Origin: an archaeon
GTDB taxonomy: Archaea; Iainarchaeota; Iainarchaeia; Iainarchaeales; Iainarchaeaceae
Assembly: GCA_035655435.1 (NCBI GenBank)
Contig: DASRUN010000066.1
Location: forward strand, 520 to 64,519
DNA length: 64,000 bases
Direction: 5' to 3'
A program made the translations under genes and the position numbers. The notes under the pieces are model-generated. The model was not told where the DNA came from, did not search any database, and saw only the letters and a program-made list of their open reading frames with translations. Positions within the stretch are counted from its first letter, which is position 1. The number at the start of each line of letters is the position of its first letter. Of this stretch, positions 6,500-53,738 are shown one piece after another.

Positions 6500-6588
6500 G
6501 CCCTCGTGGCTCAGTGGTAGAGCGGCGGTTTTGTAACCCGAAAGGGCAAACTAACCGCAGGTCGTGGGTTCAATCCCCACCGAGGGCT
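6500..6588 (+). tRNA. tRNA-Thr (TGT) with 17-nt intron
   Basis: Acceptor GCCCTCG/CGAGGGC, anticodon stem GCGGT/ACCGC, loop TTTGTA|A. Canonical 37/38 intron at 6536-6552 (ACCCGAAAGGGCAAACT, with a CCC-GAAA-GGG hairpin). Confidence 0.8.
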
Positions 6589-9145: not shown

Positions 9146-9263
9146 CCCTCCTTAGCTTAGTAGCTAAAGCGTCCGGCTGTAGAACGACATTACTCCTTTG
9201 GGAGAGAAAATAATCGCAAGTGCGGTTACCGGAAGACCCCCGGTGCAAATCCGGGAGGGGGGA
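9146..9263 (+). tRNA. tRNA-Tyr (GTA) with 45-nt intron
   Basis: Acceptor CCCTCCT/AGGGGGG (one G-U), D stem GCTT/AAGC, anticodon stem TCCGG/CCGGA, loop CTGTAG|A. Intron at 9183-9227. T arm CCCGG-TGCAAAT-CCGGG. Confidence 0.8.
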
Positions 9264-21259: not shown

Positions 21260-22159
21260 TCATTTTTTTGGCCCCAATACGATTGATTCTAGATTTTTCT
21301 GAAGGTCTGAATCATCACGAAGCATGTAATCCGCAAGCCTAAGGCTTTGGGAAACCTTCTGCGCGGTTGTCGGAGTTTTGGGCTTTAGCAAAATCGTCAC
21401 AAGCATTTTTGCTAGATCTATGTCCCCATAGCTATCCGTAATTAGGAGGGTTTTTTTGAGTTCTAATTCTTTTCCATTTGCGGAAAAAAATTCCCTTATC
21501 CCGGTAAGCTTGGTTTTCACGGGAATTCCGTTCAGATCATAGTCCTTTGTTCCGATAATTGAATTTACCCCTGTTATAAAACCATTTTCGTCGAATGCGA
21601 GTGAGGTTCCGATAAGATGGTCAAAGGCGAAATTGTGCATTTTCTGAAGGTGCTTGTTTGCAACCTCGGCAAAATCTTTAGAGGATAAAGTGGCAAGGAT
21701 AATTGTTTTCCCCTCTTTTTTCATTTTTTTAAGCGCCTTGACAAGCTGAGTCCTTAGCGTGGGCTTGAGTTTTTCAAACACCGCTTCAAAATCCATTCGG
21801 TTCATTTTTTTGCCTATGAGAAATTTGTTTCCGTCCAGAATGGCCTGCTCGATGGAGCAGTTTCCTTTTGCAATGTTTGAAAGGATTGAATCATAAATTT
21901 CCTCGCCGTGGGAAATTTTACCGGTCTTTTCCGGATAGAGAAATTTCAGGGCTTCAAGATTGGCGTCGCTCCTGAACAGCGTGCCATCCATGTCCACTAT
22001 TATGACATCAAAATCTTTGTTTCTGAATCTTGGAAGTGCGCCCCTCCTGAGCTTGAATTGAAGGGAGTTTTTCACAACAATTCCAAGGAGTTTTGCGGAA
22101 GAGAGCTTTGATTTCAGGTCCTTTACGCGCGGAATTTTCATGATAAAAGAATTGGTCAA
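21260..22159 (-). CDS. HAD-superfamily hydrolase (subfamily IB-like)
   Basis: DVIIVDMDGTLF (motif I) and ITDSYGDIDL (motif IV). Confidence 0.6.
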   Translation of the reverse strand: MTNSFIMKIPRVKDLKSKLSSAKLLGIVVKNSLQFKLRRGALPRFRNKDFDVIIVDMDGTLFRSDANLEALKFLYPEKTGKISHGEEIYDSILSNIAKGNCSIEQAILDGNKFLIGKKMNRMDFEAVFEKLKPTLRTQLVKALKKMKKEGKTIILATLSSKDFAEVANKHLQKMHNFAFDHLIGTSLAFDENGFITGVNSIIGTKDYDLNGIPVKTKLTGIREFFSANGKELELKKTLLITDSYGDIDLAKMLVTILLKPKTPTTAQKVSQSLRLADYMLRDDSDLQKNLESIVLGPKK

Positions 22160-22170
22160 AGGACATTAAT

Positions 22171-22258
22171 ATAGCAAACGGGAAAGGTAATTTTATAGAT
22201 TCATTTCCGTTTGCTATCTAGCAGACCGCATTTATGCCGTAACTTTCGTGGTCTGCTA
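22171..22258 (+). ncRNA. two-hairpin element, copy 1 (candidate small RNA)
   Basis: ATAGCAAAC-N29-GTTTGCTAT, then (TA)GCAGACC-N22-GGTCTGC(TA), followed by TGATTTTTT. Homologous to 52254-52341. Strand inferred from the downstream T-run only. Confidence 0.35.
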
Positions 22259-22346
22259 TAACCTGATTTTTTCGGAACGAGCGGGAAAAAAATGATTATA
22301 GAATACTTTTATAAGTACTAATTTCCCATTCATTAGAGGAATTTGC

Positions 22347-23519
22347 ATGGAAAAACTTTACGATGTTATAATTGTCGGAGCCGGTCCTGCCGGGGGTTCT
22401 GCCGGAATACATTGTGCAAAAAATAGTCTCAAAACTCTCATAATCGAGGACCATGATGTTATTGGAGAGCCTGTTCATTGCGGAGAATGCCTGAGCACTT
22501 ATGCCACAAAAAACACGGGAATTAACCCCCCTGAATCCGTGATTTCGGAGCATGTGAAAGGAGTTAGAGTTATTTTTCCTGACGGAACAAATTCCGTTTT
22601 AAACGAGGACGGTTTTGTTCTTGAAAAAGAAAAATTCGAACAATGGCTTTCCGAAGAGGCGGAAAAAAACGGCGCGGAAGTAAAACTCGGCACAAGACTT
22701 TTGAGTCTTGAAAGAAAAAACGGCATTTGGGAATTGCAAACAAGCAAGGGCGCGCTGAAAACTAAAATAGTTATTGACGCTTCCGGGGTTTCAGCCGTTG
22801 TTTCAAGGCTGCTGAAGCTCAATGAAAGGTTTGAAGCGGTAATAGGAATACAATATGAGCTTCGTGATATTCCAAGGGACGGTTATCTTGATTTTTACAT
22901 TTGGCCCGAGCTCGCTCCGGAAGGTTATTTGTGGATGATCCCAAAAGGAAACGGACGCGCAAATGTTGGCTTGGTTACAACAGAACGAAACAAGGCACGC
23001 GTTTATAACGAAGAATTTGTGAAAAGAATGAAGTGGGACAAGAAAGTGAATGTCAAAACTTTTGGAGGATTGATTCCTGCTTCGGGGCCATTGAAAAATA
23101 CTTATTCAGAGGGATTGATGCTGATAGGGGATGCGGCGGGATTCACATCTCCATTATTTGAGGGTGGATCGCATTTGGGATTAAAATCCGGGCAAATGGC
23201 GGCTGATGTTGCAAAGGAAGCGGTTTCCAAAAACGATTTTTCAACGGAAATGTTTTCAAATTACGAAAAATTGTGGAAAGCCGAATTTCCACAGTATGAA
23301 AAACTGATTGTGGGAAAAAAAGCGATTTACTCTTTTACGGATGAGGAACTGAATTTTATTGCAAAAAATTTTCCAAGGAACTTTGATGAATTCAATGGGT
23401 TGCAGAAAATAATTTTCGGTTTGAAGGTTTTGGTCAAAAAACCGGGTTTGCTCAAAAAAGGATTTTTGCCCGCAATGAAGGCTTTTGAATACAGCCAGGC
23501 GAAGTTCTATGGATGGTAG
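22347..23519 (+). CDS. geranylgeranyl reductase family flavoprotein
   Basis: 390 aa. YDVIIVGAGPAGGSAG FAD fold, GDAAGF motif. Length and order match archaeal lipid reductases. Confidence 0.8.
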   Translation: MEKLYDVIIVGAGPAGGSAGIHCAKNSLKTLIIEDHDVIGEPVHCGECLSTYATKNTGINPPESVISEHVKGVRVIFPDGTNSVLNEDGFVLEKEKFEQWLSEEAEKNGAEVKLGTRLLSLERKNGIWELQTSKGALKTKIVIDASGVSAVVSRLLKLNERFEAVIGIQYELRDIPRDGYLDFYIWPELAPEGYLWMIPKGNGRANVGLVTTERNKARVYNEEFVKRMKWDKKVNVKTFGGLIPASGPLKNTYSEGLMLIGDAAGFTSPLFEGGSHLGLKSGQMAADVAKEAVSKNDFSTEMFSNYEKLWKAEFPQYEKLIVGKKAIYSFTDEELNFIAKNFPRNFDEFNGLQKIIFGLKVLVKKPGLLKKGFLPAMKAFEYSQAKFYGW

Positions 23520-29613: not shown

Positions 29614-29624
29614 TTGCAAACCAA

Positions 29625-29727
29625 ATGAGTGGGACCGTAGGTCGCACAGGTCTGACGGCGAACCAAGTGCTGCCGAAGGCGCACGCTCCCTTCCGAGGAG
29701 CACGCTCGGACGCGGAGGTGTTCCCGA
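29625..29727 (+). promoter_or_regulatory. GC-rich structured leader cassette, copy A (before rpoB')
   Basis: GTGGGACC-GTA-GGTCGCAC hairpin, CACAGGTCTGACGGCG, GCTCC/GGAGC hairpin, GAGCAC word. Ends GGAGGTG + 7 nt + ATG. See findings. Confidence 0.55.
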
Positions 29728-31551
29728 ATGGTTAAGGAAGCAAAGCAGGCAAAGGTTTACATTAACGGAAGACTTATCGGATTCCATCCCGATCCCATGA
29801 AATTGACAAGGGAAATTATTGCGCGCAGAAGAGAGTCAAAAATCTCCGAGCAGGCAAATGTTGCTTTCCACGAAGATACAAATGAAGTTTACATTAACAC
29901 AGACGCAGGAAGGGTTCAGAGACCGTTGCTTGTTGTTGAGAACGGAAAATTAAAAATTACCGATGAAATTGTAAAGCAGGTTAAGGAAGTTAAAAAAACT
30001 TGGCAGGATCTTATCCGCGAGGGATATGTTGAATACCTCGATGCGGAAGAAGAGGAAAATGCTTTCATTGCTTCAAACGAAAAAGAACTCGGAAAAGAGC
30101 ACACGCATTTGGAAATTGATTCCGCAACAATTTTGAGTGTAATAAGTTCCATGATTCCTTATCTCGAACACAACATGGCGGGAAAAGCGCTTCACGGAGC
30201 AAAAATGTTCAAGCAGGCACAGGGTTTCGGAGCAAGCAATTTTAATCTTAGAAGCGATACTGAAGGATATCTTTTGCATTACCCACAAAAATCTTTGGTG
30301 AAAACAAAAACAATGCACATGGTTGGATTGAATCAGAGACCGCAAATTCAGAATCTTGTTGTTGCAATAATGCCGTATTACGGCTTCAATATTTTGGATG
30401 CAGTAATTCTCAATAGAGGCGCTGTGGAAAGAGGAATGGGAAGAAGCTCTTATTTTAGAACTTATGAAAGCGCGGAAAACAGGTATCCTGGCGGACAGAT
30501 AGATAAATTTGAAATTCCGACAGAAGAAACCGTCGGATTTTTGGGAGAAGGATTTTACAAAAAGCTTGGTCATGACGGAATAATCCAGCTTGAATCCATT
30601 GTTGAAGAAAATGATGTTTTGATTGGAAGAACCTCCCCTCCAAGATTTTTGGAAGAAATCAATGAGTTCGGTGTTGTTCAGGAAAAAAGAAGGGAAACAA
30701 GCGTTACAATAAGAAAAGGCAAGGACGGTTTTGTTGACAAAATTTTTGTAACAGAATCGGAAGCCGGAAACAAGCTTGTGAAAGTTAAAGTTAGAAGCCA
30801 GAGAATTCCCGCGCTTGGAGATAAATTCAGTTCAAGGCACGGGCAGAAAGGTGTTGTTGGATTAATTGTTCCTGAGGAAGACATGCCTTTTACACCCGAT
30901 GGAATAAAACCTGATTTGATTTTGAACCCGCACTCTGTTCCTTCAAGAATGACCATTGGACACTTGCTTGAAATGCTTGCGGGAAAAGCTTCCGCAATGA
31001 AAGCAATGCAGATAGACGGAACTCCTTTTGGCGGAGTCAAACAAGCTGAACTTGAAAAAATGCTTGATGCAGCCGGATTAAGAAAAAATGCAAAAGAAGT
31101 TTTTTACGACGGTACAACAGGAAAAAGAATCCAAGGAGAAATTTTTACGGGACCGGTTGCTTATAGAAGATTGTTCCACATGACCGCGCACAAAATACAA
31201 AGCAGAGCTCGCGGACCGGTTCAGATTTTGACAAGACAGCCTACAGAAGGAAAGGAAAAAGAGGGCGGATTAAGATTTGGAGAAATGGAAGGAGAAACAT
31301 TGGTTGGACACGGAGCGGCAATGCTTTTGCAGGAAAAATTCATTGATGATTCCGATAAAGTTACAATGTGGGTTTCCGAAACCGCGGGAGTAATAGGATT
31401 TGAGGATCAAATCAGAAAAGTGAAGAGGGTTCTTGAGGCAAATGATTCGAAAATTTATCCTGTTGAAATGAGCTATGGTTTCAAATTATTGCTTGATGAA
31501 TTGAAAGCTCTTGGAGTATATCCTAAATTGATTTTGACGGACAAGGTGTAA
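29728..31551 (+). CDS. rpoB1: RNA polymerase subunit B' (C-terminal half of split RpoB)
   Basis: 607 aa. GDKFSSRHGQKGV, NPHSVPSRMTIG, and GGLRFGEMEGETLVGHGA motifs. Confidence 0.95.
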   Translation: MVKEAKQAKVYINGRLIGFHPDPMKLTREIIARRRESKISEQANVAFHEDTNEVYINTDAGRVQRPLLVVENGKLKITDEIVKQVKEVKKTWQDLIREGYVEYLDAEEEENAFIASNEKELGKEHTHLEIDSATILSVISSMIPYLEHNMAGKALHGAKMFKQAQGFGASNFNLRSDTEGYLLHYPQKSLVKTKTMHMVGLNQRPQIQNLVVAIMPYYGFNILDAVILNRGAVERGMGRSSYFRTYESAENRYPGGQIDKFEIPTEETVGFLGEGFYKKLGHDGIIQLESIVEENDVLIGRTSPPRFLEEINEFGVVQEKRRETSVTIRKGKDGFVDKIFVTESEAGNKLVKVKVRSQRIPALGDKFSSRHGQKGVVGLIVPEEDMPFTPDGIKPDLILNPHSVPSRMTIGHLLEMLAGKASAMKAMQIDGTPFGGVKQAELEKMLDAAGLRKNAKEVFYDGTTGKRIQGEIFTGPVAYRRLFHMTAHKIQSRARGPVQILTRQPTEGKEKEGGLRFGEMEGETLVGHGAAMLLQEKFIDDSDKVTMWVSETAGVIGFEDQIRKVKRVLEANDSKIYPVEMSYGFKLLLDELKALGVYPKLILTDKV

Positions 31552-31556
31552 TTGAT

Positions 31557-31653
31557 ATGATGACAAAAATGTTGAACGAAGCTAGTGTGACCGCAGGTCG
31601 TGGCATCGAGCACCGCGAAGATGGCACACCTCTCTCAGCGAGGTGTCGCTGAA
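31557..31653 (+). promoter_or_regulatory. GC-rich structured leader cassette, copy B (before rpoA')
   Basis: Begins with a duplicate of the rpoA' start (ATGATGACAAAAA). GTGTGACC-GCA-GGTCG hairpin. ACACCTC/GAGGTGT hairpin holds the SD 8 nt before ATG 31654. Confidence 0.55.
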
Positions 31654-34266
31654 ATGATGACAAAAAGAATTGAGGGAATTGAATTCAGGATTATGGGTCC
31701 GGAGTTTATTAGAAAAATGAGCGGGATAGAAATCAAGAGCCCTGAAACTTATGATAAAGACGGCTTCCCAATGGAAGGCGGATTGATGGATAATCATCTT
31801 GGGGTTATCAATCCCGGATTGAGATGCAAGACCTGCGGAAATACAATGAAAAAATGCCCCGGCCACTTTGGACACATAGAATTGGTTAGGCCGATTGCAC
31901 ACTCTGAATTCGGAAAAAAACTTGAAATTTTGATGCAGGCAACATGCCAGAGCTGCGGAAGAATAGCAATCCAAGCTGATAAGCTTGAGCAGTTAAGGGC
32001 TTTTATCGGCGATGAAACAATTAATATTGCAAAAAAGATTTTGGCAAAAACAAAAAAAGTGAAAAAATGTCCGCATTGTACTGCTGACAGACGCGAAATT
32101 TCACTTGACAAGCCCACAAACTTTTACATTGACAAGGACAGAATTTATCCCACGCAAATAAGGGAATGGGTTGAAAAAATCCCCGACAAGGATTTGGAAT
32201 TCTTTGGTTATGAACAAGGAAAACTCAGGCCGGAGTGGTTTATCATGACCGTGCTCCAGGTTCCGCCGATCAATCTTAGGCCGAGCATTACACTTGAATC
32301 AGGAATAAAAAGCGAAGACGATCTAACACACAAACTTGTTGATATAATTAGAATAAACATGAGATTGAAGGACAACATTGATGCAGGCGCACCGCAACTT
32401 ATCATTGAAGATCTTTGGGATTTGCTCCAATATCATGTGACAACGTATTTCAACAATAATACCGCGGGAGTTCCTCCGGCAAAACACAGGAGCGGAAGAG
32501 CACTTAGAACTCTTGTGCAAAGATTGCAGGGAAAGAAAGGAAGATTCAGGTACAACTTAACAGGAAAAAGAGTTAATTTTGCGGCTCGTTCAATCATAAC
32601 TCCCGATCCAATGCTTTCAATCAACGAACTCGGTGTTCCCCAAGAAATTGCGGACAACATGACTGTTCCGGAAATAATTACAAAAGGAACCTTGACAGAA
32701 GCAAAGAACATGATCAAGGAAGGAAAAGTAATTTATGTTATCAGGCCTGATGGAATGAGAAAAAAAGTTGTTGAGGCAAACATGGAAGCTATTTTGGAAG
32801 AGCTTGATGTCGGATTTAAACTTGACAGAAAATTGAAAGACGGAGATATTGTTCTCTTTAACAGACAGCCTTCGTTGCACAGGCTTTCAATGCTCGCACA
32901 CAGAGCAAAAATTATGAAAGACAAGACATTCAGATTGAATTCAATTGTGTGCAAACCATACAATGCGGACTTTGATGGAGACGAAATGAACATGCATGTT
33001 CCGCAAACTCCTGAAGGAATTGCGGAAGCAACAGAACTAATGCTTGTTGAAAAACAAATTATTTCCCCAAGATACGGAGCCCCGGTAATAATTCTTGATG
33101 AAGACGGAGTTTCAGGATGCTTTATACTAACAATGAAGCAAACCGTGTTTGATAAGGATAAGGCGTTCCAGTTTTTCCAGTTAATGAATTTGCAGGAAAT
33201 TCCAAAGCCGGATGTCGGAAAGGACAAATATTCAGGAAAACTAATTTTCTCGCAATTGTTGCCAAAAGATTTGAACATGGAGTACAAAACCAAATTGCAT
33301 GACATAATCAAAAGAGAAGATCCAAACAACGCACTATTGAAAGACCCGTACAAGAATGATTTGATAGTTAAGATTGAGAAAGGCCAATTGAAAGCCGGAA
33401 TAATTGATGCGGTCAGTCTTGGAGAAGGAAAAGGAAAACTTGTTGATGCACTTGCAAGGGATTATCCTCCTGCAGTAATAAGGGGTTTTTATGACAGTAT
33501 TTCAAAAATAATCGGCGGTCTTATAACGGAAGTTGGAATGACAGTAAGCCTTGAGGAATACACTCCGAGCAGCAAGATACTCAGTTTGAGAGAAAAAGCC
33601 GTTGAGGAAATGAGAAAAGAAACCGATTCGTGGGTTAAAAAATTCGAGAAAGGACATCTCGATTTAATTCCGGGAAGAAATCAGGAAGAGAGCTTTGAAA
33701 TTTACATGATGAGAACAGGGGCAGCTGCAAAAGAAAAATTGCAGAAGCAAATCATGAAAGAACTTGTTGATTCTGTAATGGTTGATGAACCTGAATTCAA
33801 CAGCAATGTAATGATACTTTCAGGTTCAAGAGGAAACATCATCAATCTTGTAAACTTATCCGGAATGTGGGGACAGGCATCTGTAAGAGAGGGAAGGCCG
33901 AAGAGAGGATTCTCGAATAGATTGATCGCACTCAACAAAAGAAAGGATGTTGGAATAGATGCGGGGGGATTCATTTACCACAATTTCATGGAAGGAATGA
34001 GCTCTTATGAATACTTCTATCACACAATGGGTGGAAGACAGGGAGAAGTTGACACGGGAGTTTCAACAAAGGTTTCCGGTTATTTGTACAGAAGGCTGGC
34101 AAATTCTTTGAAGGATCTTGTTGTAAACAATGATGCAACTGTGAGAACGGCAAACAAGAATATTGTACAGTACAAGTACGGAGAAGACGGAGTCTTCCCG
34201 GAAAAAACATTTAAAGGAAAAAGCGTTTCTGTGAAAAGAGAGCTTGAAAAAATGAGAAGCAAGTGA
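31654..34266 (+). CDS. rpoA1: RNA polymerase subunit A'
   Basis: Zinc motifs [17 protein letters not shown], and the [10 protein letters not shown] catalytic loop. Start set at [11 protein letters not shown]. The ORF-track start 31600 reads through the GC-rich cassette. Confidence 0.95.
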
Positions 34267-36292: not shown

Positions 36293-36426
36293 ATGAATGA
36301 AGCTCGTGTGACCGAAGGTCGCACACCTCTGAACTCCCGGAACGCCGGGAGCACGTTGCACCGCACTTTGTGCGGGGCTAGTCCAACCGAAGGTTGGACA
36401 CCTCTGAACGCGGAGGTGTCCGCATA
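36293..36426 (+). promoter_or_regulatory. GC-rich structured leader cassette, copy C (before rps12)
   Basis: Five hairpins folded by hand: 36306-24, 36335-50, 36361-75, 36383-97, and 36396-421. The last pairs GGACACCTC with GAGGTGTCC, i.e. the SD. Confidence 0.55.
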
Positions 36427-37494: not shown

Positions 37495-37530
37495 TGAGCT
37501 GATTGAATGAAAAATTATTTTACAACTACA

Positions 37531-37626
37531 ATGAGCGAAGCTAGTGTGACCGAAGGTCGTGGCATCGAGCACCGCGAAGATGACACAGGTCTAACGGCGG
37601 ACCTCTCCGCCGCGAGGTGTCGCTGA
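37531..37626 (+). promoter_or_regulatory. GC-rich structured leader cassette, copy D (before EF-2)
   Basis: About 50 nt nearly identical to copy B. Segments AGGTC, GACCTC and GAGGTGT form mutually exclusive pairings. TGA is followed directly by ATG 37627. Confidence 0.55.
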
Positions 37627-39819
37627 ATGGCCAAAAAGGAAGATATTGTAAAGCTAGCGGAAAAGCTGATGAATACTAGAGAAAACATCAGAAACATGGG
37701 GATAGTTGCGCACATTGATCATGGAAAATCAACTCTTGCCGATTCACTTGTTGCTGCCTCAGGATTGATGAGCGAAGAGCTTGCCGGCCAACAAAGAGTA
37801 ATGGATTATGAGGATCAGGAACAAGCTCGAGGAATAACAATTAACGCAGCAAACATTTCCCTTTCGCACACACTCGACGGAAAAGATTATTTGATCAATC
37901 TGATTGACACGCCCGGGCATGTTGATTTTGGGGGAGAGGTAATTCGAGCAATGAGAGCCGTTGATGGAGTTATTCTTGTTGTTGATGCGGTTGAAGGAGT
38001 AATGCCGCAAACCGAAACAGTTATCAGGCAGGCATTAAGGGAATACGTGAAACCGGTTCTTTTCATAAACAAAGTTGACAGGCTTATCAACGAATTACAA
38101 TTATCAGAACAGCAGATGCAGGAAAGATTTGTGAAAACAATTACTCATGTTAATACTCTCATAAAAAAGAATGTTCCAAAAGAATTTGCGGAAGAATGGA
38201 CGGTAAAAGTACAGGATGGTTCTGTTACATTTGGAAGCGCATACAACAAGTGGGCGGTTTCAGTTCCAAGGATGTCAAAAACAGGGGTTTCGTTCAAACA
38301 GGTTTACGAGTATTTGAAAAGCGGCAACCAAAAAGAGTTAGCGCAAAAAAGCAGGTTAACCGAAGCAATATTGGATATGGTTACAAGACACCTTCCAAAT
38401 CCTGTGAAAGCGCAATCATACAGGATGGCGGTTATTTGGAAAGGGGAATCTGAATCAAACATTGGAATTGCAATGAAAACGTGCGACGAGAACGGTCCTT
38501 TCGCAATGATGGTTACGGATGTTAGTGTTGACAAACACTCCGGAGATATTGCAACCGGAAGAGTTTACTCGGGAAAAGTACAGAAAGGATTGAAAGTGAA
38601 ACTTATCGGAAGTCATAAAGAAGTCCAGATACAAAAAATCGGTTTGTTCATGGGCGCGGATTTTGTCGAAGCCGTCATGGTTCCTGCAGGAAACATTGTT
38701 GCGCTTGTGGGATTGAAAGAAGTTTATGCGGGAGAGACAATCAGCACGGAAGCTGTGAAGGCATTTGAAAGTTTCATGAGCGAAGTCGAACCTGTTATTA
38801 CAATTTCGATTGAGGCAAAAAACACGAAAGATCTTCCAAAACTTATTGAGGTTATAAGACAGCTGAGCAAAGAGGATCCGAATTTGAAGACCACAATAAA
38901 TCAGGATACCGGAGAGCATCTTTTGAGTGGAATGGGAGAACTTCACTTGGAAATAAACCAATACAGAATTGAACAGCATCACAAAGTTCCTATTACAGTT
39001 TCACAACCGATTGTTGTTTACCACGAAACAATAAACAAAGAATCCCCGGTTCTTGAATCAAAGAGCCCGAACAAGCACAACAAGCTCAAATTGCACGCTG
39101 AAAAAATTCCCCAAGAACTCTTGGATAATCTTATCAAAAGCCACATTGACGGAAAAATAAAACCCAAAGATAAAGAAATGATCGCAAAATTCCAGGAAAT
39201 GGGTTTTGAAAATGATTTCTCCAAAAAAATTTGGGCAGTGCACAATAATTGCATGCTAGCGGACATGACAAGGGGGATAGAGGCATTGCATGAAATTAGG
39301 GAACTTGTAATACAGGGTTTCAATGATACAATGGATGCCGGACCGCTTGCAAAGGAAAAATGCTTTGGAGTACTTATTGTAATAGAAGATGCAACATTGC
39401 ATGAAGATGCAATCCATAGGGGGCCAGCACAAATGCTTCCAACAATGACAAGAGGTTGTTATGCGTGCATGCTTTCCGCGGATGCTGTTCTTTACGAACC
39501 AAAGCAAAGGTTAACAATTACAGTTCCGGAAGATTATTTAGGAGCGGTTTCTAAAGAACTTGGTTCTAGGAGAACACAAATATCCGAAATGCGCCAGGAA
39601 GGGGATTCATCTATTATAATTGGAAACGCCCCGGTAAAGGAACTAATCGGATTTTCCAGCACTATCAGGGGGGCAACACAAGGAAGGGCCTTGTGGACTG
39701 CTGAATATGCGGGCTATGAATTGCTTCCAAGGGAATTGCAAAAGAAAACCATTGAGGAAATAAGGAAGAGAAAGGGAATGGATCCCGAAGTCAAGCCTGC
39801 TGCATTCTTTTTGGATTAA
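37627..39819 (+). CDS. fusA: translation elongation factor aEF-2
   Basis: 730 aa. NMGIVAHIDHGKSTL, DTPGHVDF, NKVDR GTPase motifs. A His-containing loop (HEDAIHRGPAQ) marks the diphthamide site. Confidence 0.95.
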   Translation: MAKKEDIVKLAEKLMNTRENIRNMGIVAHIDHGKSTLADSLVAASGLMSEELAGQQRVMDYEDQEQARGITINAANISLSHTLDGKDYLINLIDTPGHVDFGGEVIRAMRAVDGVILVVDAVEGVMPQTETVIRQALREYVKPVLFINKVDRLINELQLSEQQMQERFVKTITHVNTLIKKNVPKEFAEEWTVKVQDGSVTFGSAYNKWAVSVPRMSKTGVSFKQVYEYLKSGNQKELAQKSRLTEAILDMVTRHLPNPVKAQSYRMAVIWKGESESNIGIAMKTCDENGPFAMMVTDVSVDKHSGDIATGRVYSGKVQKGLKVKLIGSHKEVQIQKIGLFMGADFVEAVMVPAGNIVALVGLKEVYAGETISTEAVKAFESFMSEVEPVITISIEAKNTKDLPKLIEVIRQLSKEDPNLKTTINQDTGEHLLSGMGELHLEINQYRIEQHHKVPITVSQPIVVYHETINKESPVLESKSPNKHNKLKLHAEKIPQELLDNLIKSHIDGKIKPKDKEMIAKFQEMGFENDFSKKIWAVHNNCMLADMTRGIEALHEIRELVIQGFNDTMDAGPLAKEKCFGVLIVIEDATLHEDAIHRGPAQMLPTMTRGCYACMLSADAVLYEPKQRLTITVPEDYLGAVSKELGSRRTQISEMRQEGDSSIIIGNAPVKELIGFSSTIRGATQGRALWTAEYAGYELLPRELQKKTIEEIRKRKGMDPEVKPAAFFLD

Positions 39820-40976: not shown

Positions 40977-43900
40977 GTGGACAAACAACAGCAAACAATA
41001 GTGGGAATTTGCATTGCGGGAATACTCCTTGGATTGATTTTAATTGTTGTTTTTTTACAGCCAACACCGCAACAAATAGAAAATATTCCGCAAACAAATG
41101 AACAGGAAACAAACAATACACTTTGTTTGGAAAGCTGTTCTGCATGTGAATTTGATGAGGTTTGTGAAACTAACGGAATAAAAACATGCATTAATTCTAA
41201 TTGTGAAACCACAATCAATGCATGCTCGCGAGAACTTCCATTGGAATGTTACATACAAGGGCAGTCTGATTCTGAAAGCATAACAGCAAAGGCAATCCGA
41301 GAAAATAATGTGGATGAATGCGATTCGCTTGGTGGAGCGGAAGCACAATTGTGTGCAAGCGAATTTTATTACAATAAATTTTTGGAAACAAAAGACGTTT
41401 CTTTTTGCGGAAAAATAATTGATTTTAATATCAAAATGAAATGTTTGAATTATGATGATGAACCGCAAGAGCAGGAACCACTTATTCCCACAGATCTTGG
41501 AAATCGAACCGTGCAAACATCGGGAAAAAAATTGGTTGAAAGTGGGAAGAATTTTGCAACCTATGAAATTTCAGGAGACCCTGATAATGATCCTTCAACA
41601 ACCGCAATGGTTACGGAAGTTTATTTTGAACCGGAAGAAATTCGCTTTGCAACCCTGTCAGTTCCCGTTTCTACAGTAACTGGCATGTCACCAAACTATG
41701 GCAGCAATTCTTATGAATGGATTGACAATGTTCTGACAGGCAGGGCATACTGCCGAACCCTCCTTGGCTTTTGCGCGCCTGGCTGCGATTGCTCAATCGA
41801 GGGGGATGCACAAAGGACTTTTTCAAGCGATGAAACAACTGAAACAATTAATCTTCCAAACTGGCAATCGCAAAACTCAGTTGAGGTTGAGTTGGGCAGC
41901 GGCATGTGGGGAAATTTTGTGATATCCAGATTGATTTTCGGGCTGCTTAACTTTGAAACAGCGCCGTGGCATTCAAATACTTCAATTAACATAAAAAAAT
42001 CCGGAACAGGATCTTTCTTTTCAACGGGTTTTCTAGGAACAGGAACCTGTTTTGAACCTGATGTAGAAAGCAGGTGCAATGCAATTGGAGGAACTGAAAT
42101 CAGGCATCTAATGAGCGGTGTAACTCCGGGAACCGGATTGGTTTTGGATCCGGATCCAACAGGAAATGTGGATGTTACAATAAAACTAGACCACGAGGTT
42201 AGCGGAGATTCTTGGGGAGTTTTTGTGAATAGATCAGGCTATGTCTCGCCTAATCCAAGAGTGGTTGTGTACATTAATTGGAACAGGAACGATGATCCAC
42301 CGACAATAACCGCGCAAGTTTGCTCTGTTACGGAAGGGGATGAAACAATAATTTCCTGTGCACCAACATTGCCAAATGACACTCAACTATTAAAGTGCAT
42401 TACAACTTACTCCGACCCTGAAGGGGATAGAGCTGCGGAAGCATATTCTTGGGAGGCGAATGGAAGCGCGGTTCCGTTTGAAGAAAATCAAACCATAAGT
42501 TTAGGCGGTTTTACCAGAACTAATCCAAACACATTCAGATGCACTTTTACAGTAAACCCTTTAAGCCCTTCAACACAACCTGATGTGAGCGTTACTTCCT
42601 TACTCGCAACAGTGGACGCGGTTTCCAACAGCGGAGGCCTTGTTCTCCACATGCCGTTTGACACGGATTTCAGTGATTCTTCAACATTTAATAATAATGG
42701 AACACCGATGAACGGAGCAACAATAACAGAAACCGGAAAACTCTGCGGAGCGCTAGAGCTTGATGGAACAGATGACTTTGTTGAGGTTTTGGATTCGGGT
42801 TCGCTTGATATTGAGAATGAAATAACAATCGCCGCCTGGGTTAACACAGAGAATCTCAATGGAACAAGAATGATTGTATCAAAATATTTCCGACAAGGTT
42901 TCAGAGATAATTATGCAATGATGCTTGTATCAAGTAGTTTATTCGGAAGCTTGGAGAAAAATTGTTTTAGATGCCTGAGCGCTTGGTTCGGAACGGATAG
43001 AGATGTTCCTGCAAACACGTGGAAACATGTTGCATTAACGTATGATGGAGCTCAGGCAAAATTGTATGTGGATGGGCAACTAAAAGAAACATTGGATGAA
43101 ACAGGTGCGATTGGAACAAATAACGAGCCATTGCATATTGGAGCGGAAAAAGAAACTAGCTTCAGAAACCCAAATCCGCCATTTCAAGATTTTTTCTCCG
43201 GAAAAATTGATGATTTGAGAATTTACAGCAGGGTGCTTTCACAATCAGAAATACAAGCGCTCACGCTTGAAACATGCAATGAACCGGAACCTGAAACACC
43301 AACATGTACAATAGAAAATGCGAATCCCGTAAACATTCCACTTGGCGGAACAACTGATGTTACGATTTCGCTTGAAAATTTTACAACACCTCCAAGTAAT
43401 TTCGGAAGTCTTGCATGTGGAGATGGAGCAACTGCATCACGCATAAGCTGCACGCAAACCCAATGTACATTTAGATGCTCGAATTATAATTCCGCGGGAA
43501 CATTTACAATCAACAATCTTTCCGGATTGACAAACGGATCTGAAACCGCGAACTGCAATGGTTCGGCAATTGTTAATGTTCAGGCGCCGATAAATACGGA
43601 TTGTTCAGATAATGGCGGAACATGCAGGAACACTTGCCCTATTTCGGAAGAACGAGTACCGGCATTCACGTGCTCCAATCCTTCGCAAATTTGTTGCATT
43701 GATGTTTGCCCGGATTCTGTGGAAGTGAATGGTTCGTGCGGATGCGGAGGAGTAATAATAAACGATGGTTATTGTTGTGAAGGAATTCCTTCAAGCACGC
43801 AGTGCTCCGAGCCCACACAGAATAATTTGGTTGGAATTAATCTTGAAACGGATAAAAAAGAGTACGGAAACGAAAATGCCGCAATCACTGTTACGGTTGC

Positions 43901-44264
43901 AAAGAAAGCAATTGGATTTGGCGGAAATGCAGGGGTTGCATTGAAGGCAATAAGGGAAAAGGATTCAATGCAAATAACTCTTCCTGTTTCCTCAATGAAT
44001 TTTAATTTTGCGCTAACCGATCCGGTTGGGGAAACAGAACAACAATTGTTCACATTGAACACCGGATCATTGCAATCCGGAGTTTACACTTTGACGGCTG
44101 AAATTACACAAACAATGCCGGAAAACGATACAATAAGGGCGGATAACATTGATTCGGAAACAATAATAATCAAACCAAGGGCAACGGTTGCCGCGCCCGA
44201 AATACACCCAATATTTGTAGTTTTGATTGTATTCGCTGTTTTGATGATCCTTAAAAGGAACTAA
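40977..44264 (+). CDS. giant surface protein with LamG/concanavalin-like domain, Cys-rich modules, CARDB-like region and conserved C-terminal anchor
   Basis: 1095 aa. N-terminal TM helix. LamG_3-type segment LVLHMPFD...ITIAAWVN...WKHVALTYDG..AKLYVDG...GKIDDLRIYSRVLS. C-terminal VAAPEIHPIFVVLIVFAVLMILKRN. Confidence 0.65.
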   Translation: MDKQQQTIVGICIAGILLGLILIVVFLQPTPQQIENIPQTNEQETNNTLCLESCSACEFDEVCETNGIKTCINSNCETTINACSRELPLECYIQGQSDSESITAKAIRENNVDECDSLGGAEAQLCASEFYYNKFLETKDVSFCGKIIDFNIKMKCLNYDDEPQEQEPLIPTDLGNRTVQTSGKKLVESGKNFATYEISGDPDNDPSTTAMVTEVYFEPEEIRFATLSVPVSTVTGMSPNYGSNSYEWIDNVLTGRAYCRTLLGFCAPGCDCSIEGDAQRTFSSDETTETINLPNWQSQNSVEVELGSGMWGNFVISRLIFGLLNFETAPWHSNTSINIKKSGTGSFFSTGFLGTGTCFEPDVESRCNAIGGTEIRHLMSGVTPGTGLVLDPDPTGNVDVTIKLDHEVSGDSWGVFVNRSGYVSPNPRVVVYINWNRNDDPPTITAQVCSVTEGDETIISCAPTLPNDTQLLKCITTYSDPEGDRAAEAYSWEANGSAVPFEENQTISLGGFTRTNPNTFRCTFTVNPLSPSTQPDVSVTSLLATVDAVSNSGGLVLHMPFDTDFSDSSTFNNNGTPMNGATITETGKLCGALELDGTDDFVEVLDSGSLDIENEITIAAWVNTENLNGTRMIVSKYFRQGFRDNYAMMLVSSSLFGSLEKNCFRCLSAWFGTDRDVPANTWKHVALTYDGAQAKLYVDGQLKETLDETGAIGTNNEPLHIGAEKETSFRNPNPPFQDFFSGKIDDLRIYSRVLSQSEIQALTLETCNEPEPETPTCTIENANPVNIPLGGTTDVTISLENFTTPPSNFGSLACGDGATASRISCTQTQCTFRCSNYNSAGTFTINNLSGLTNGSETANCNGSAIVNVQAPINTDCSDNGGTCRNTCPISEERVPAFTCSNPSQICCIDVCPDSVEVNGSCGCGGVIINDGYCCEGIPSSTQCSEPTQNNLVGINLETDKKEYGNENAAITVTVAKKAIGFGGNAGVALKAIREKDSMQITLPVSSMNFNFALTDPVGETEQQLFTLNTGSLQSGVYTLTAEITQTMPENDTIRADNIDSETIIIKPRATVAAPEIHPIFVVLIVFAVLMILKRN

Positions 44265-44278
44265 TAGACGCTGGCGGA

Positions 44279-47443: not shown

Positions 47444-49066
47444 TTGAATGTCATGCACAAAAAAAATATTTTAATGCTTTTTCTGATTTTAACAATATTT
47501 TTAATTGGTTTTGCAACCGCGGAAACTTCAATTCGATGCCAAATAGGTGCTAGTGGAACGTTATTTGGGGTGAGCGCACCAAGCAATGCGCATGTAGCAA
47601 TAAGCACGAGTGAATACGCTAACAAGGTAGGATGCACCGCAGATACCTCAGCACCTGCGTGTAGTGATCCTAGCTCTGCAATAGCACTAAAACTTTCAAG
47701 TGCAACAAACGCGCACGCTGAATCACCAAATCTAAGCAATTACACTCAAAACATTTGCATAAAAGCATCGGCAACAAACCAACAAACTTATTGTTATGCA
47801 CTCAATGATTGTCCAAGCGACTTTATAGGATTGGTAAATCTTTATGGGGAAACAGGGCTAGTGAATGGGCAACTCACTGTAACCAATGCGCTTGTTGGAG
47901 CATACGCTGCCGGCGCACCACACATTTGTTGTGGATTGAGAGACTTAGACGATTCACCTGCTACAAGCTGTACAATAACGGCAAGCCCAACAACAATAGA
48001 AATAGGAGAAACATCAAGCATTGCAGTCACTTGTTCTAATGCATTAGGCACAACACAATGCCCAAGCGATTTGCAAATAGTTTCAACCGCCCCTGCAATA
48101 GCAACTTATGATTCAACCACTACCCAATTAACAGGAGTAAGCGCAGGAGACACAACAGCAAGAGCGACAAGCGTTTCAATTCCTGCAGTAACTTGTGTTT
48201 CGGGAACAGTAACGGTTACTGATACAATAAACAATTGTGTGATTGATGCACAAGCAACAGAAGCATGCATTTGCGGAACAGAAACTGCAAACCCGGGACA
48301 GTTCTGCTGTGCAACCGGAGTTTCTGATACTGCATGCACCACACCAACACCGAATTGTGTTGAAGGAGAAAATACAACCGGAGAAATTTGTTCATGCAAT
48401 GGTACTCCGGTTCCGGATGGAGAATATTGTTGTAGCGGAGTTGCAAGCACAGTATCATGTGATCAGCTTTGTCCGCAAGGACAAATAACAACAACTTGTA
48501 GTTGTGAAAATCAAATCAGAAATTCTGGAGACGGTTACTGCTGCAGCGGAGTTTTCCAAACAACACAATGTACAAACTCCAGTCTGAACCATGTGAAAAT
48601 CAGTGCTTTGAGACTTGAACAAACAGAGTTTTTCAAAGATTCGGAAGATCCGATTACATTTGCAATTGATGTGGAAAGAATTGACGACAGTGTAACAACA
48701 GGATATTTGGAGGCTTATTTGATACACAACATAAATCAAACCCAAACTCAGATTTTTGCGGATCCAACTAATGAATTGGAAGTTAGTTTTGTTGACGCAG
48801 AACCAATGACAATTCCCGTAAGTTTTCCAACAACATCGCTTGCAACTGGCAGTTATAGGCTTGTTGTTCACATAACATCAGAATTTGACAGAGATGGAGC
48901 TGGAAATATTGCAAATGATGAAGGGAAAGTTGATGATAATACAAAATCGGCAAGTATTCTAGTGAGAAGCGGTCCTGCCGGAGGCCCGGTAGCAGCTCCT
49001 GAAATACACCCGATATTTATAGTGTTCATACTCTTCGCGGTTTTAATGATCATTAAAAGGAACTGA
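47444..49066 (+). CDS. surface protein with three CxC...GYCC modules, CARDB-like region and conserved C-terminal anchor
   Basis: 540 aa. Signal peptide. Modules at 48266-48571. The C-terminal VAAPEIHPIFIVFILFAVLMIIKRN is nearly identical to that of 40977..44264. Confidence 0.6.
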   Translation: MNVMHKKNILMLFLILTIFLIGFATAETSIRCQIGASGTLFGVSAPSNAHVAISTSEYANKVGCTADTSAPACSDPSSAIALKLSSATNAHAESPNLSNYTQNICIKASATNQQTYCYALNDCPSDFIGLVNLYGETGLVNGQLTVTNALVGAYAAGAPHICCGLRDLDDSPATSCTITASPTTIEIGETSSIAVTCSNALGTTQCPSDLQIVSTAPAIATYDSTTTQLTGVSAGDTTARATSVSIPAVTCVSGTVTVTDTINNCVIDAQATEACICGTETANPGQFCCATGVSDTACTTPTPNCVEGENTTGEICSCNGTPVPDGEYCCSGVASTVSCDQLCPQGQITTTCSCENQIRNSGDGYCCSGVFQTTQCTNSSLNHVKISALRLEQTEFFKDSEDPITFAIDVERIDDSVTTGYLEAYLIHNINQTQTQIFADPTNELEVSFVDAEPMTIPVSFPTTSLATGSYRLVVHITSEFDRDGAGNIANDEGKVDDNTKSASILVRSGPAGGPVAAPEIHPIFIVFILFAVLMIIKRN

Positions 49067-49133
49067 TATACGCTGAAGGGCGGCCGCTTGTTGAATAACT
49101 GAAAACATCGTAGTCGTTATATTTAAATATTAG

Positions 49134-52165: not shown

Positions 52166-52253
52166 TGCGCTAGCTTCTGAATTTGGTTTCCGGAGAATCC
52201 TAGCAGCACGCCATATTCTCTTTATTGTGGTTTTGGCGTTTGTTTTCCTGCTT

Positions 52254-52341
52254 ATAGCAAACTGGATAAGTAATTCTGTTTATTTGTTGCAGTTTGCTAT
52301 CCGGCAGACCTCAATTAATACTGAAAGCTTGCGCGGTCTGC
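52254..52341 (+). ncRNA. two-hairpin element, copy 2 (candidate small RNA)
   Basis: ATAGCAAAC-N29-GTTTGCTAT, then (G)GCAGACC-N24-GGTCTGC(C), followed by TGATTTTTAAATCTTTTT. TTTATT lies about 30 nt upstream. Confidence 0.35.
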
Positions 52342-52472
52342 CATAGAAGAGGAGATTGATTTTTAAATCTTTTTAATGAGTACTATTTAGCCTTAAATTG
52401 AAGGGAGAAATATGGATTGGAGCCCGTTTTTTGGCTTTTATTGATGTTTGATTTTTTTTGGAGGAATTTTGA

Positions 52473-53738
52473 ATGGCAGCTAAACCGCATATAAATTTGG
52501 TCTTTATAGGACACGTTGACCATGGTAAGTCAACAACAGTCGGAAGACTTCTTTATGATACAGGAGCACTCCCTGAACAAGAATATAGAAAACTTCAGCA
52601 GGAAGCTGAATCTAAAGGAAAAGGAACTTTTGCATTTGCTTACGCAATGGACAACCTCAAAGAAGAAAGAGAAAGAGGTGTTACAATTGATGTTGCATAC
52701 AAAAAGTTTACCGCACAAAAAAATTCTTTCACTATCATAGATGCCCCGGGACACAGGGACTTTGTTAAGAACATGATTACGGGAACAAGCCAGGCTGATG
52801 CCGGTGTTCTTGTAGTTGCATGCAAAGAAGGCCCACAACCGCAAACCAAGGAACACGCTTTCCTTGCACAGGTTATGGGATTAAAACAATTGATTGTTGC
52901 AATCAACAAAATGGATGAAGTCGGTTACCAAGAAGCAAAGTACAATGAAGTAAGAGACACAATGAAAAAAATGGTTCTTGGAATCGGTTACAAAGAAGAC
53001 CAGATTAAGTTTGTTCCAATCTCCGCTTGGGAAGGAGAAAACATTGCAAAGGCAACGGGAAAAATGCCTTGGTACAAGGGAGCAACTCTTGTAGGAACTT
53101 TGGATGAATTGAAGGCACCTAATTTGCCGACTGATAAACCATTGAGATTGCCTATACAAGATGTTTACAACATTAAAGGTGTTGGAACCGTTCCTGTTGG
53201 AAGAGTTGAAACCGGAATTATAAAACCCGGCGACAAAATTGTTGTAATGCCATCAGGAAAACAGGGAGAAGTTAAGACTGTTGAAGCACATCACGAACAA
53301 CTCTCACAAGCGGGTCCCGGAGACAATGTTGGTTTCAATGTCAGAGGCCTTGAGAAAAAGGATATTGCAAGAGGAGATGTTGTGGGGCATGTTACAAACC
53401 CGCCTACAGTTGCAAAAGAATTCATTGCACAAATTGTTGTTCTGTCACATCCAACGGCAATTCCGGTTGGTTATACTCCGGTTTTCCACATGCACACCGC
53501 CCAATTGAGCTGTACTATTACGGAAATCCAAAAAAAACTTGATCCTAAAACAGGTGCAACCAAGGAAGAGAATCCTAAATTCTTGAAAACAGGAGACGCG
53601 GCAATTGTAAAAATTACGCCGTTGAAACCTGTTTGCGTGGAAGAATACAAGAAATTCCCGCAGCTTGGCAGATTTGCAATTAGAGACATGGGACAGACAG
53701 TTGCGGCAGGAGTAATCCTGAGCGTAACACCAAAGTAA
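52473..53738 (+). CDS. tuf: translation elongation factor aEF-1 alpha
   Basis: 421 aa. [21 protein letters not shown] motifs. GGAGG lies 8 nt upstream. Confidence 0.95.

Follow-up and report, generated by a model that had tools for sequence, protein, structure and literature searches.

We found that a two-hairpin sequence present twice in a 64-kb stretch of archaeal DNA (hereafter the window) belongs to a family of non-coding dispersed repeats of about 93 bp, which are probably non-autonomous mobile elements, MITE-like in organization and carrying REP/BIME-like hairpins. Family membership, sharp ends, covariation within hairpins, a patchy distribution, absence and turnover at orthologous sites, and the lack of orientation bias are established for this repeat. 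At least 22 distinct copies, each 91-94 nt long, were identified in at least six genomes or bins. The sequence-only reading of the window had proposed a plus-strand family of small RNA genes; its repeated family, its two hairpins and its pairing-preserving double substitutions were all reproduced, but the RNA gene was not. The window is archaeal, as judged from its genes for EF-1alpha, ribosomal protein S10 and RNA polymerase subunits and from its intron-containing tRNAs. Close protein homologues of the window genes are labelled Candidatus Diapherotrites, the older name of Iainarchaeota. The repeat family is confined to part of the Iainarchaeota (DPANN archaea), and it has no earlier description in Rfam, in plasmid and phage records or in the full-text literature searched.

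Two copies in the window and structure of the repeat

The full element, from TATAGC to GCTATA, was located at 22170-22260 on the plus strand (copy 1; cmsearch 85.5 bits, E 4e-16) and at 52253-52345 on the same strand (copy 2; 87.9 bits, E 1e-16). The occurrence of the element at these two places, noticed earlier from the letters alone, was thus confirmed, the full unit being slightly larger than first delimited. The family covariance model gave only these two matches in the window (E ~1e-16), and the exact 9-mer ATAGCAAAC occurs in the window only at four arm positions. Both copies share the pattern TATAGCAAAC-N29-GTTTGCTAT, a short linker, and (T/G)(A/G)GCAGACC-N22/24-GGTCTGC(T/C)ATA, with a total length of 91-93 nt. 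The plus strand of copy 1 represents the L1-to-L2 orientation, from the loop of hairpin 1 to the loop of hairpin 2. Copy 1 was aligned with 19 other family copies, and copy 2 was also found in the ENA contig L001.

The left part of copy 1 consists of T (22170), ATAGCAAAC (22171-22179), 29 nt, GTTTGCTAT (22209-22217) and a C linker, and the right part of TAGCAGACC (22219-22227), 22 nt, GGTCTGCTA (22250-22258) and TA up to 22260. Hairpin 1 (22171-22217, plus strand) is formed by the arms ATAGCAAAC(GG) and (CC)GTTTGCTAT, its loop carrying the family motif A-R-G-T-A-A-T, and hairpin 2 (22219-22258, plus strand) by the arms TAGCAGACC(GC) and (GT)GGTCTGCTA. In copy 2, T (52253) is followed by ATAGCAAAC (52254-52262), 29 nt, GTTTGCTAT (52292-52300), a CC linker, GGCAGACC (52303-52310), 24 nt, GGTCTGCC (52335-52342) and ATA up to 52345. 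Hairpin 1 of copy 2 (52254-52300, plus strand) has the arms ATAGCAAAC(TG) and (CA)GTTTGCTAT, and hairpin 2 (52303-52342, plus strand) the arms GGCAGACC and GGTCTGCC. The compensatory stem differences noted before were also confirmed: the inner pairs of hairpin 1 are GG:CC in copy 1 versus TG:CA in copy 2, and hairpin 2 has A:T versus G:C. Both copies are far more stable than shuffled sequence (z = -5.5 and -3.7), and in both the plus strand folds 7-8 kcal/mol better than the minus strand.

The family consensus is TATAGCAAACC AATAAAGTAATTCGGTGAATTTTCAT GGTTTGCTA TC TAGCAGACC ACCATAAATGCCGAAAAACTTTCGT GGTCTGCTATA, in which two imperfect palindromes, each about 45 nt long, stand in tandem. The four arms are all variants of one 9-11-mer, TAGC(A/G)(A/G)ACC, and the central 20 bp make a near-perfect palindrome. 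Arms are nearly invariant and loops variable across copies, with short motifs kept in both loops (A-A-R-T-A-A-T in loop 1 and AACTTTCG in loop 2). Conservation stops abruptly at TATAGC...GCTATA, the first outward base showing just a weak purine preference. The two ends carry the 11-nt terminus TATAGCA(A/G)ACC in opposite orientation, within imperfect inverted repeats of about 26 nt (~80% identity); on alignment, the left end TATAGCAAACCAATAAAGTAATTCGG matches the reverse complement of the right end, TATAGCAGACCACGAAAGTTTTTCGG. Position 8 of the termini is variable and usually mismatched between the two ends. TA was observed at both junctions in every copy, and may be a target duplication or part of the element.

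Covariation was then evaluated for two alternative pairing schemes. Under the two-hairpin model, 96.4% of cells were paired and double changes were observed in 8 of 22 pairs (24 cells), a level reached by none of 500 shuffles; with slid partners as controls, the paired fraction collapsed to 25-47%. When outer termini and the central palindrome were paired instead, 91.3% of cells were paired with no double change, worse than shuffled sequence (500 of 500 shuffles reached this level). At the main variable position, each hairpin has either A-T or G-C irrespective of the other hairpin, giving four stem combinations (hairpin 1, then hairpin 2): AAACC followed by AGACC in 'A' copies, AGACC followed by AAACC in 'Swap' copies (L002b, L003b, L041 and L042), AAACC/AAACC in L046, and AGACC/GAACC in L010b. 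This independent toggling within hairpins indicates that the constraint acts on local intrastrand hairpins rather than on matching of the termini. The number of G-U wobble pairs was four on the L1-to-L2 strand and seven on the opposite strand, neither being favoured, and the covariation therefore cannot identify an RNA strand. Since covariation in DNA palindromes can also arise mechanically through templated quasi-palindrome correction, it is no proof of selection.

Two copies of Candidatus Iainarchaeum andersonii are interrupted in one arm (GGTT|TGCTA) by a 45-nt insertion, CCTTCTACCCGTAGGGTACGAGGCCTAATGCCCTTGGGCA(C/T)CAGG, at 452-496 and 2655-2699 of locus L006 (contig AQRS01000024.1). It consists of two small GC-rich hairpins with related stems, its junction lacks a duplication, and it may represent a second, nested family of hairpin repeats.

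Distribution of the family and turnover at orthologous sites

The known carriers are I. andersonii, several related MAGs and metagenome contigs. A pattern scan of GTDB species genomes yielded 10 loci in four genomes with zero false positives: five in I. andersonii SCGC AAA011-E11, three in the MAG CAYJWI01, and one each in JBBSVV01 and DATDXA01. By arm search inside these loci, additional copies and variants were detected, and the family covariance model, built from 15 copies, confirmed 17 copies in them. A scan of JGI metagenomes gave seven loci, five of which were new distinct copies; L048, a weak match, was rejected as a family member. In the I. andersonii loci, four non-seed copies were found in ~37 kb, or about one per 9 kb, which suggests by extrapolation from these 37 kb a number of the order of 100 copies per genome; the 64-kb window holds just two. 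Blastn against plasmid and phage records gave no match to the repeat, and the family covariance model detected zero true copies in viral contigs, where 23 loci picked up with single-hairpin patterns proved by the same model to be chance palindromes. Full-text literature searches on repeats in Iainarchaeota and on the arm sequences retrieved unrelated primers only.

We compared the site of copy 1 with orthologous sites in relatives. Copy 1 lies between a gene for a HAD-family hydrolase (21260-22141, minus strand; an ORF whose orthologues match Pfam HAD) and a geranylgeranyl-reductase-like (GGR) gene (22347-23519, plus strand), which starts 86 nt to the right of the element. This gene pair is syntenic in four relatives (GGR identity 77-83%), and its spacer is 109-134 nt there versus 205 nt in the window, about 95 nt shorter. 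With the element removed, the distance from the HAD ATG to the GGR promoter word would be about 75 nt, compared with 71 nt in the relative L012. The promoter-like word of GGR, TTTATAAGTAYTAATTT, is kept in relatives lacking the element. No copy was detected by cmsearch in 69 kb of DNA from the HAD/GGR relatives, nor in 37 kb of contigs of three relatives around the gene for aspartyl-tRNA synthetase (AspRS), 106 kb in total. An exact empty site was sought in the relatives and none was recovered, the spacers being too diverged for base-by-base alignment; at this divergence (77-83% amino acid identity of GGR), absence from the HAD/GGR site is read from spacer length alone.

Turnover was observed at an orthologous site upstream of the AspRS gene in I. 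andersonii and the MAG JBBSVV, which have different subfamily interiors there, in opposite orientations. The flanks are 95% identical and the arms identical, but the interiors differ, the loops being swapped and inverted and the linker being TC in one and GA in the other. A simple inversion in situ was rejected, since recombination of this kind between the outer arms would leave mismatched stems and the stems observed are perfectly matched. Moreover, loop 1 of the JBBSVV copy is identical to loop 1 of the long variants of L006 in I. andersonii. Matched stems together with a loop 1 from another subfamily fit better with replacement or conversion by another copy, indicating that the AspRS site was re-occupied or converted by a member of another subfamily, and not merely inverted.

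In the HAD/GGR spacer, the word TTTATAAGTAYTAATTTC at 22306-22323 is conserved some 40 nt before the GGR start in L012, L013 and L014, the spacers holding it being otherwise unalignable among these relatives. This word is presumably the TATA/initiator region of the GGR gene.

Neighbouring genes and alternative explanations

The genes next to the repeat are unrelated housekeeping genes, including those for EF-1alpha, GGR, HAD, AspRS, AdoHcy hydrolase, epimerases and glycosyltransferases. Among co-directional genes the element is antisense in eight cases and sense in five, and it is also found between divergent genes (2-3 cases) and convergent genes (two cases). About eight element ends have a start codon 13-46 nt outward, and some junctions resemble TATA boxes when read on the gene strand. 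For copy 1, the HAD ATG lies 28 nt outside the left end, and on the HAD strand the terminus and its flank together form GCTATATTAA, some 25-35 nt before this ATG; similar junctions elsewhere are GCTATAAATA and GCTATAATAA. These TATA-like junctions would reflect either insertion into TA-rich promoter cores that are rebuilt by the termini, or outward promoter activity. In two genomes, no more than 14 nt separate the element from the ATG of AspRS, and the AspRS promoter therefore lies inside the element or upstream of it. Copy 2 is followed after 127 nt by the EF-1alpha gene (52473-53738, plus strand).

Independent small RNA genes, each with its own TATA box, transcribed on the L1-to-L2 strand, ending at a T-run and acting in trans, for instance as an H/ACA-like guide, would explain the stable hairpins with compensatory changes and the better folding of the plus strand of the window copies. 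The promoter and terminator of such genes are, however, not family features: 22 copies showed no conserved sequence upstream or downstream of the 93-nt core. The upstream TATA-like words and the downstream TGATTTTT are present only at the window copies, flanks of the other copies being unrelated, and GATAAAAG at 22142 directly adjoins the HAD start codon, which is on the opposite strand. Likewise, TTTTA-TAAGTACTA downstream of both window copies lies outside the element; beside copy 1 this word is the promoter region of GGR and is kept in relatives without the element, and beside copy 2 it stands just upstream of the EF-1alpha leader and may be promoter-like as well. In 9 of 21 copies, hairpin 2 is followed at a distance of no more than 30 nt by a run of five or more T (T5-6). 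This candidate terminator was rejected because it is not family-wide, A-runs being found in almost as many copies (6 of 21), and because the flanks show no other relationship. The ATA following hairpin 2, which had kept an H/ACA-like guide under consideration, is indeed found in every copy but belongs to the invariant terminal TATA. Archaeal H/ACA sRNAs consist of a lower stem, a pseudouridylation pocket, an upper stem and a K-turn or K-loop, with the ACA box about 14-16 nt from the target position; they resemble the repeat in their hairpins (one or more), all of which are followed by an ANA trinucleotide. The repeat differs in showing no evident pocket plus K-turn by eye, in its multiple copies and random orientation, and in the lack of an Rfam H/ACA match at E < 10. 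H/ACA, C/D and K-turn readings were rejected: no box or tandem G-A (K-turn-like) motif was seen by eye, the hairpins are just 40-47 nt, and the loops, the putative guides, are largely unpaired, differ strongly among copies, and are even swapped and inverted at the AspRS site. Permissive Rfam scans of copy 1 and a consensus-like copy gave nothing but miRNA-type noise of 12-19 bits. A plus-strand RNA gene is further contradicted by the mixed orientation, by the wobble pairs lacking strand preference, and by absence from the orthologous HAD/GGR spacer and from the 106 kb of closer relatives. The missing promoters and the flips of orientation argue strongly against small RNA genes, which we consider very unlikely.

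Alternatively, the copies could, whatever their origin, be retained as a cis element used by the host in the manner of REP or Correia sequences, its transcribed hairpins stabilizing, processing or terminating mRNAs, its termini serving as outward promoters, or both. The proximity of ends to start codons, the junctions that read as good TATA boxes, the position of the AspRS promoter, the higher conservation of arms than loops across genomes, and hairpins equally good on either strand, as would suit orientation-free action, are all compatible with this role. Short distances to gene starts are, however, expected for any insertion into the short spacers of a compact genome, and the relatives run the same genes without the element. 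Archaeal termination normally needs no hairpins. We regard a host-used cis element as quite unlikely. In another reading, the central palindrome GGTTTGCTA-TC-TAGCAGACC and the two outer half-sites would be bound as double-stranded DNA by a dimeric protein of the host, for example a recombinase, a nucleoid protein or a global regulator. The near-perfect 20 bp of this palindrome, the nearly invariant arms beside variable loops, and a similar palindrome, GTTTGCTATATAGCAAAC, present twice in front of an XRE-type HTH gene on unrelated contigs of bacteria, would fit such sites. That bacterial operator match was nevertheless forced by the search pattern, and the neighbouring genes have no common function. 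Covariation of the variable arm positions is seen inside each hairpin, and neither across the central palindrome nor between the termini, a pattern that one protein reading all half-sites would not generate. Because the entire 93-nt unit is copied, loops included, the copies point to duplication of an element and not to convergent operator sites. We consider protein-binding sites highly improbable.

A non-autonomous mobile element remains the preferred explanation. The repeat is a short, multi-copy, non-coding sequence with terminal inverted repeats, present at some orthologous sites and absent from others, and no transposase-encoding IS sharing its ends was seen in 183 kb of element-bearing DNA. 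Many degraded copies with MITE-type terminal inverted repeats had been named as an outcome that would speak against RNA genes; numerous copies with such repeats are essentially what was found, well preserved rather than degraded. We infer that the repeat spreads, or recently spread, to AT-rich intergenic sites, possibly with TA as target, through a transposase supplied in trans or through recombination between copies. Given the covariation within hairpins, intrastrand hairpins would matter for propagation or maintenance, forming in read-through RNA or, while the element transposes or is replicated, in single-stranded DNA. With its TATA ends, often 13-46 nt from start codons, the element probably lands in the TATA regions of promoters and rebuilds them, and it would put hairpins into neighbouring transcripts. 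On the other hand, conservation of arms above loops across genomes could reflect host-level function rather than recent spread.

A partner transposase was sought in 183 kb of element-bearing DNA. No solo arms were found beside a transposase-like ORF, and all-against-all blastp of 256 ORFs revealed no repeated protein. Tblastn for Y1 transposase, with IS200/IS608 TnpA queries, gave no match in the same 183 kb, and Pfam analysis of 10 neighbour genes detected no transposase.

In front of the EF-1alpha gene, the sequence 52377-52445 contains the promoter-like word TTTTTAATGAGTACTATTT followed by a Shine-Dalgarno-like GGGAG and then by a 10-codon mini-ORF, MDWSPFFGFY, with its ATG at 52413, the true EF-1alpha start being at 52473. 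This mini-ORF could encode a leader peptide or could be due to chance.

Comparison with known repeats and other sequences of note

The closest likeness in overall design is to the Correia elements of Neisseria (NEMIS/CREE) and the bacterial MITEs of TIR type, which are also non-coding intergenic units of about 100 bp with imperfect TIRs of about 26 bp, TA at both junctions, both orientations, promoter-like ends, hairpin transcripts and no evident cognate transposase in the same genome. The repeat differs from these in being archaeal (DPANN), in consisting of two tandem palindromes, and in covarying within hairpins and not between termini; no sequence similarity to them was detected. REP, BIME and REPIN sequences (RAYT, Y1 HUH) are likewise short imperfect palindromes of high copy number, strictly extragenic and paired, with stem complementarity maintained by compensatory change, and are thought to act as single-stranded hairpins. 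The palindromes of the repeat are, however, about 45 nt long, compared with 20-40 nt for REP, and its hairpins are tandem and not inverted. To our knowledge, RAYT/REP systems have been described mainly in bacteria, and RAYT/TnpA was not found in the DNA sampled here. The arms of the repeat begin with (T)ATAGC and lack the conserved GTAG or CGTC head that REP palindromes carry according to PMC3733652. The IS200/IS605-derived PATEs of archaea and cyanobacteria share with the repeat two subterminal hairpins on the same strand with similar stems, as if a left and a right end had been fused, the lack of any obvious long target duplication, and occurrence in archaea. Ends of IS200/IS605 elements reach past the hairpins to conserved cleavage sites and insert 3' of a fixed tetra- or pentanucleotide; in contrast, conservation of the repeat ends 1-2 nt outside the stems, its 5' flank is variable, and no TnpA/TnpB partner was seen. 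Taken together, the repeat lacks the defining features tested for a small RNA gene, an H/ACA RNA, a classical REP and an IS200/IS605-derived element.

A more far-reaching interpretation is that the family is an archaeal (DPANN) counterpart of REP/RAYT or Correia systems, spreading through single-stranded hairpins and offering outward TATA boxes, with an exchangeable or invertible interior, so that it would serve, in either orientation, as a portable cassette of promoter and RNA hairpins that rewires the expression of housekeeping genes such as those for AspRS, HAD and an epimerase in tiny genomes. We hold this interpretation to be unlikely.

MITE- and REP-like repeats are already a well-known category, and our finding is descriptive. 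DPANN archaea have very small genomes; about 100 copies per genome, if the estimate is right, would mean that even such reduced genomes retain selfish or recombining DNA. The repeat family marks turnover at the strain level, and it is a caution to annotators that such loci should not be called small RNA genes. If the TATA-ended termini have promoter activity, they would provide a simple route to the rewiring of expression in archaea.

Four metagenome matches (L040, L043, L044 and L045) were rejected as unrelated, as they are bacterial-looking contigs matched by force of the search pattern. The palindrome GTTTGCTATATAGCAAAC occurs twice in each, at L040 1267-1322, L043 1098-1153, L044 4263-4404 and L045 8100-8196. 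The two copies of this perfect palindrome are located directly upstream of an XRE-type HTH gene that is next to a HipA-like gene, and SNF2 and integrase-like ORFs are also present, all as judged by eye from ORF translations. The palindrome pair is probably an autoregulatory operator, and its likeness to the central palindrome of the archaeal repeat is due solely to the search pattern.

At the gathering score, Rfam identified only tRNAs in the whole window, five in number. ARAGORN identified four, missing that at 9146-9263 (118 nt). This tRNA and the tRNA-Thr at 6500-6588 (89 nt) are both long enough to contain introns; intron-containing tRNAs are typical of DPANN archaea.

GC-rich repeated intergenic elements were noted on the plus strand of this low-GC genome at 29618-29730, 31570-31655, 36296-36420 and 37528-37628, between genes of the RNA polymerase, ribosomal protein and EF-2 region. 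Their units resemble GCTAGTGTGACCGAAGGTCGCACACCTCTGAAC, one 68-nt pair being 88% identical, and Rfam gave no match to them. Each ends in a stem in which CACCUCU pairs with a Shine-Dalgarno-like GGAGGUG right before the next start codon, and only 36296-36420 folds clearly better than shuffled sequences (z = -4.3). They may constitute a separate family of cis-regulatory or processing motifs.

An 89-nt direct repeat with 82% identity was also detected at 44185-44273 and 48987-49075. It corresponds to the 3' ends of two paralogous large ORFs, 40977-44264 and 47444-49066, which share 29% amino acid identity, the former with Laminin_G_3 domain matches. The region of these ORFs, just upstream of copy 2, contains small genes, genes without Pfam match and one AAA_14/DUF4143 ATPase gene, and looks like a variable island.
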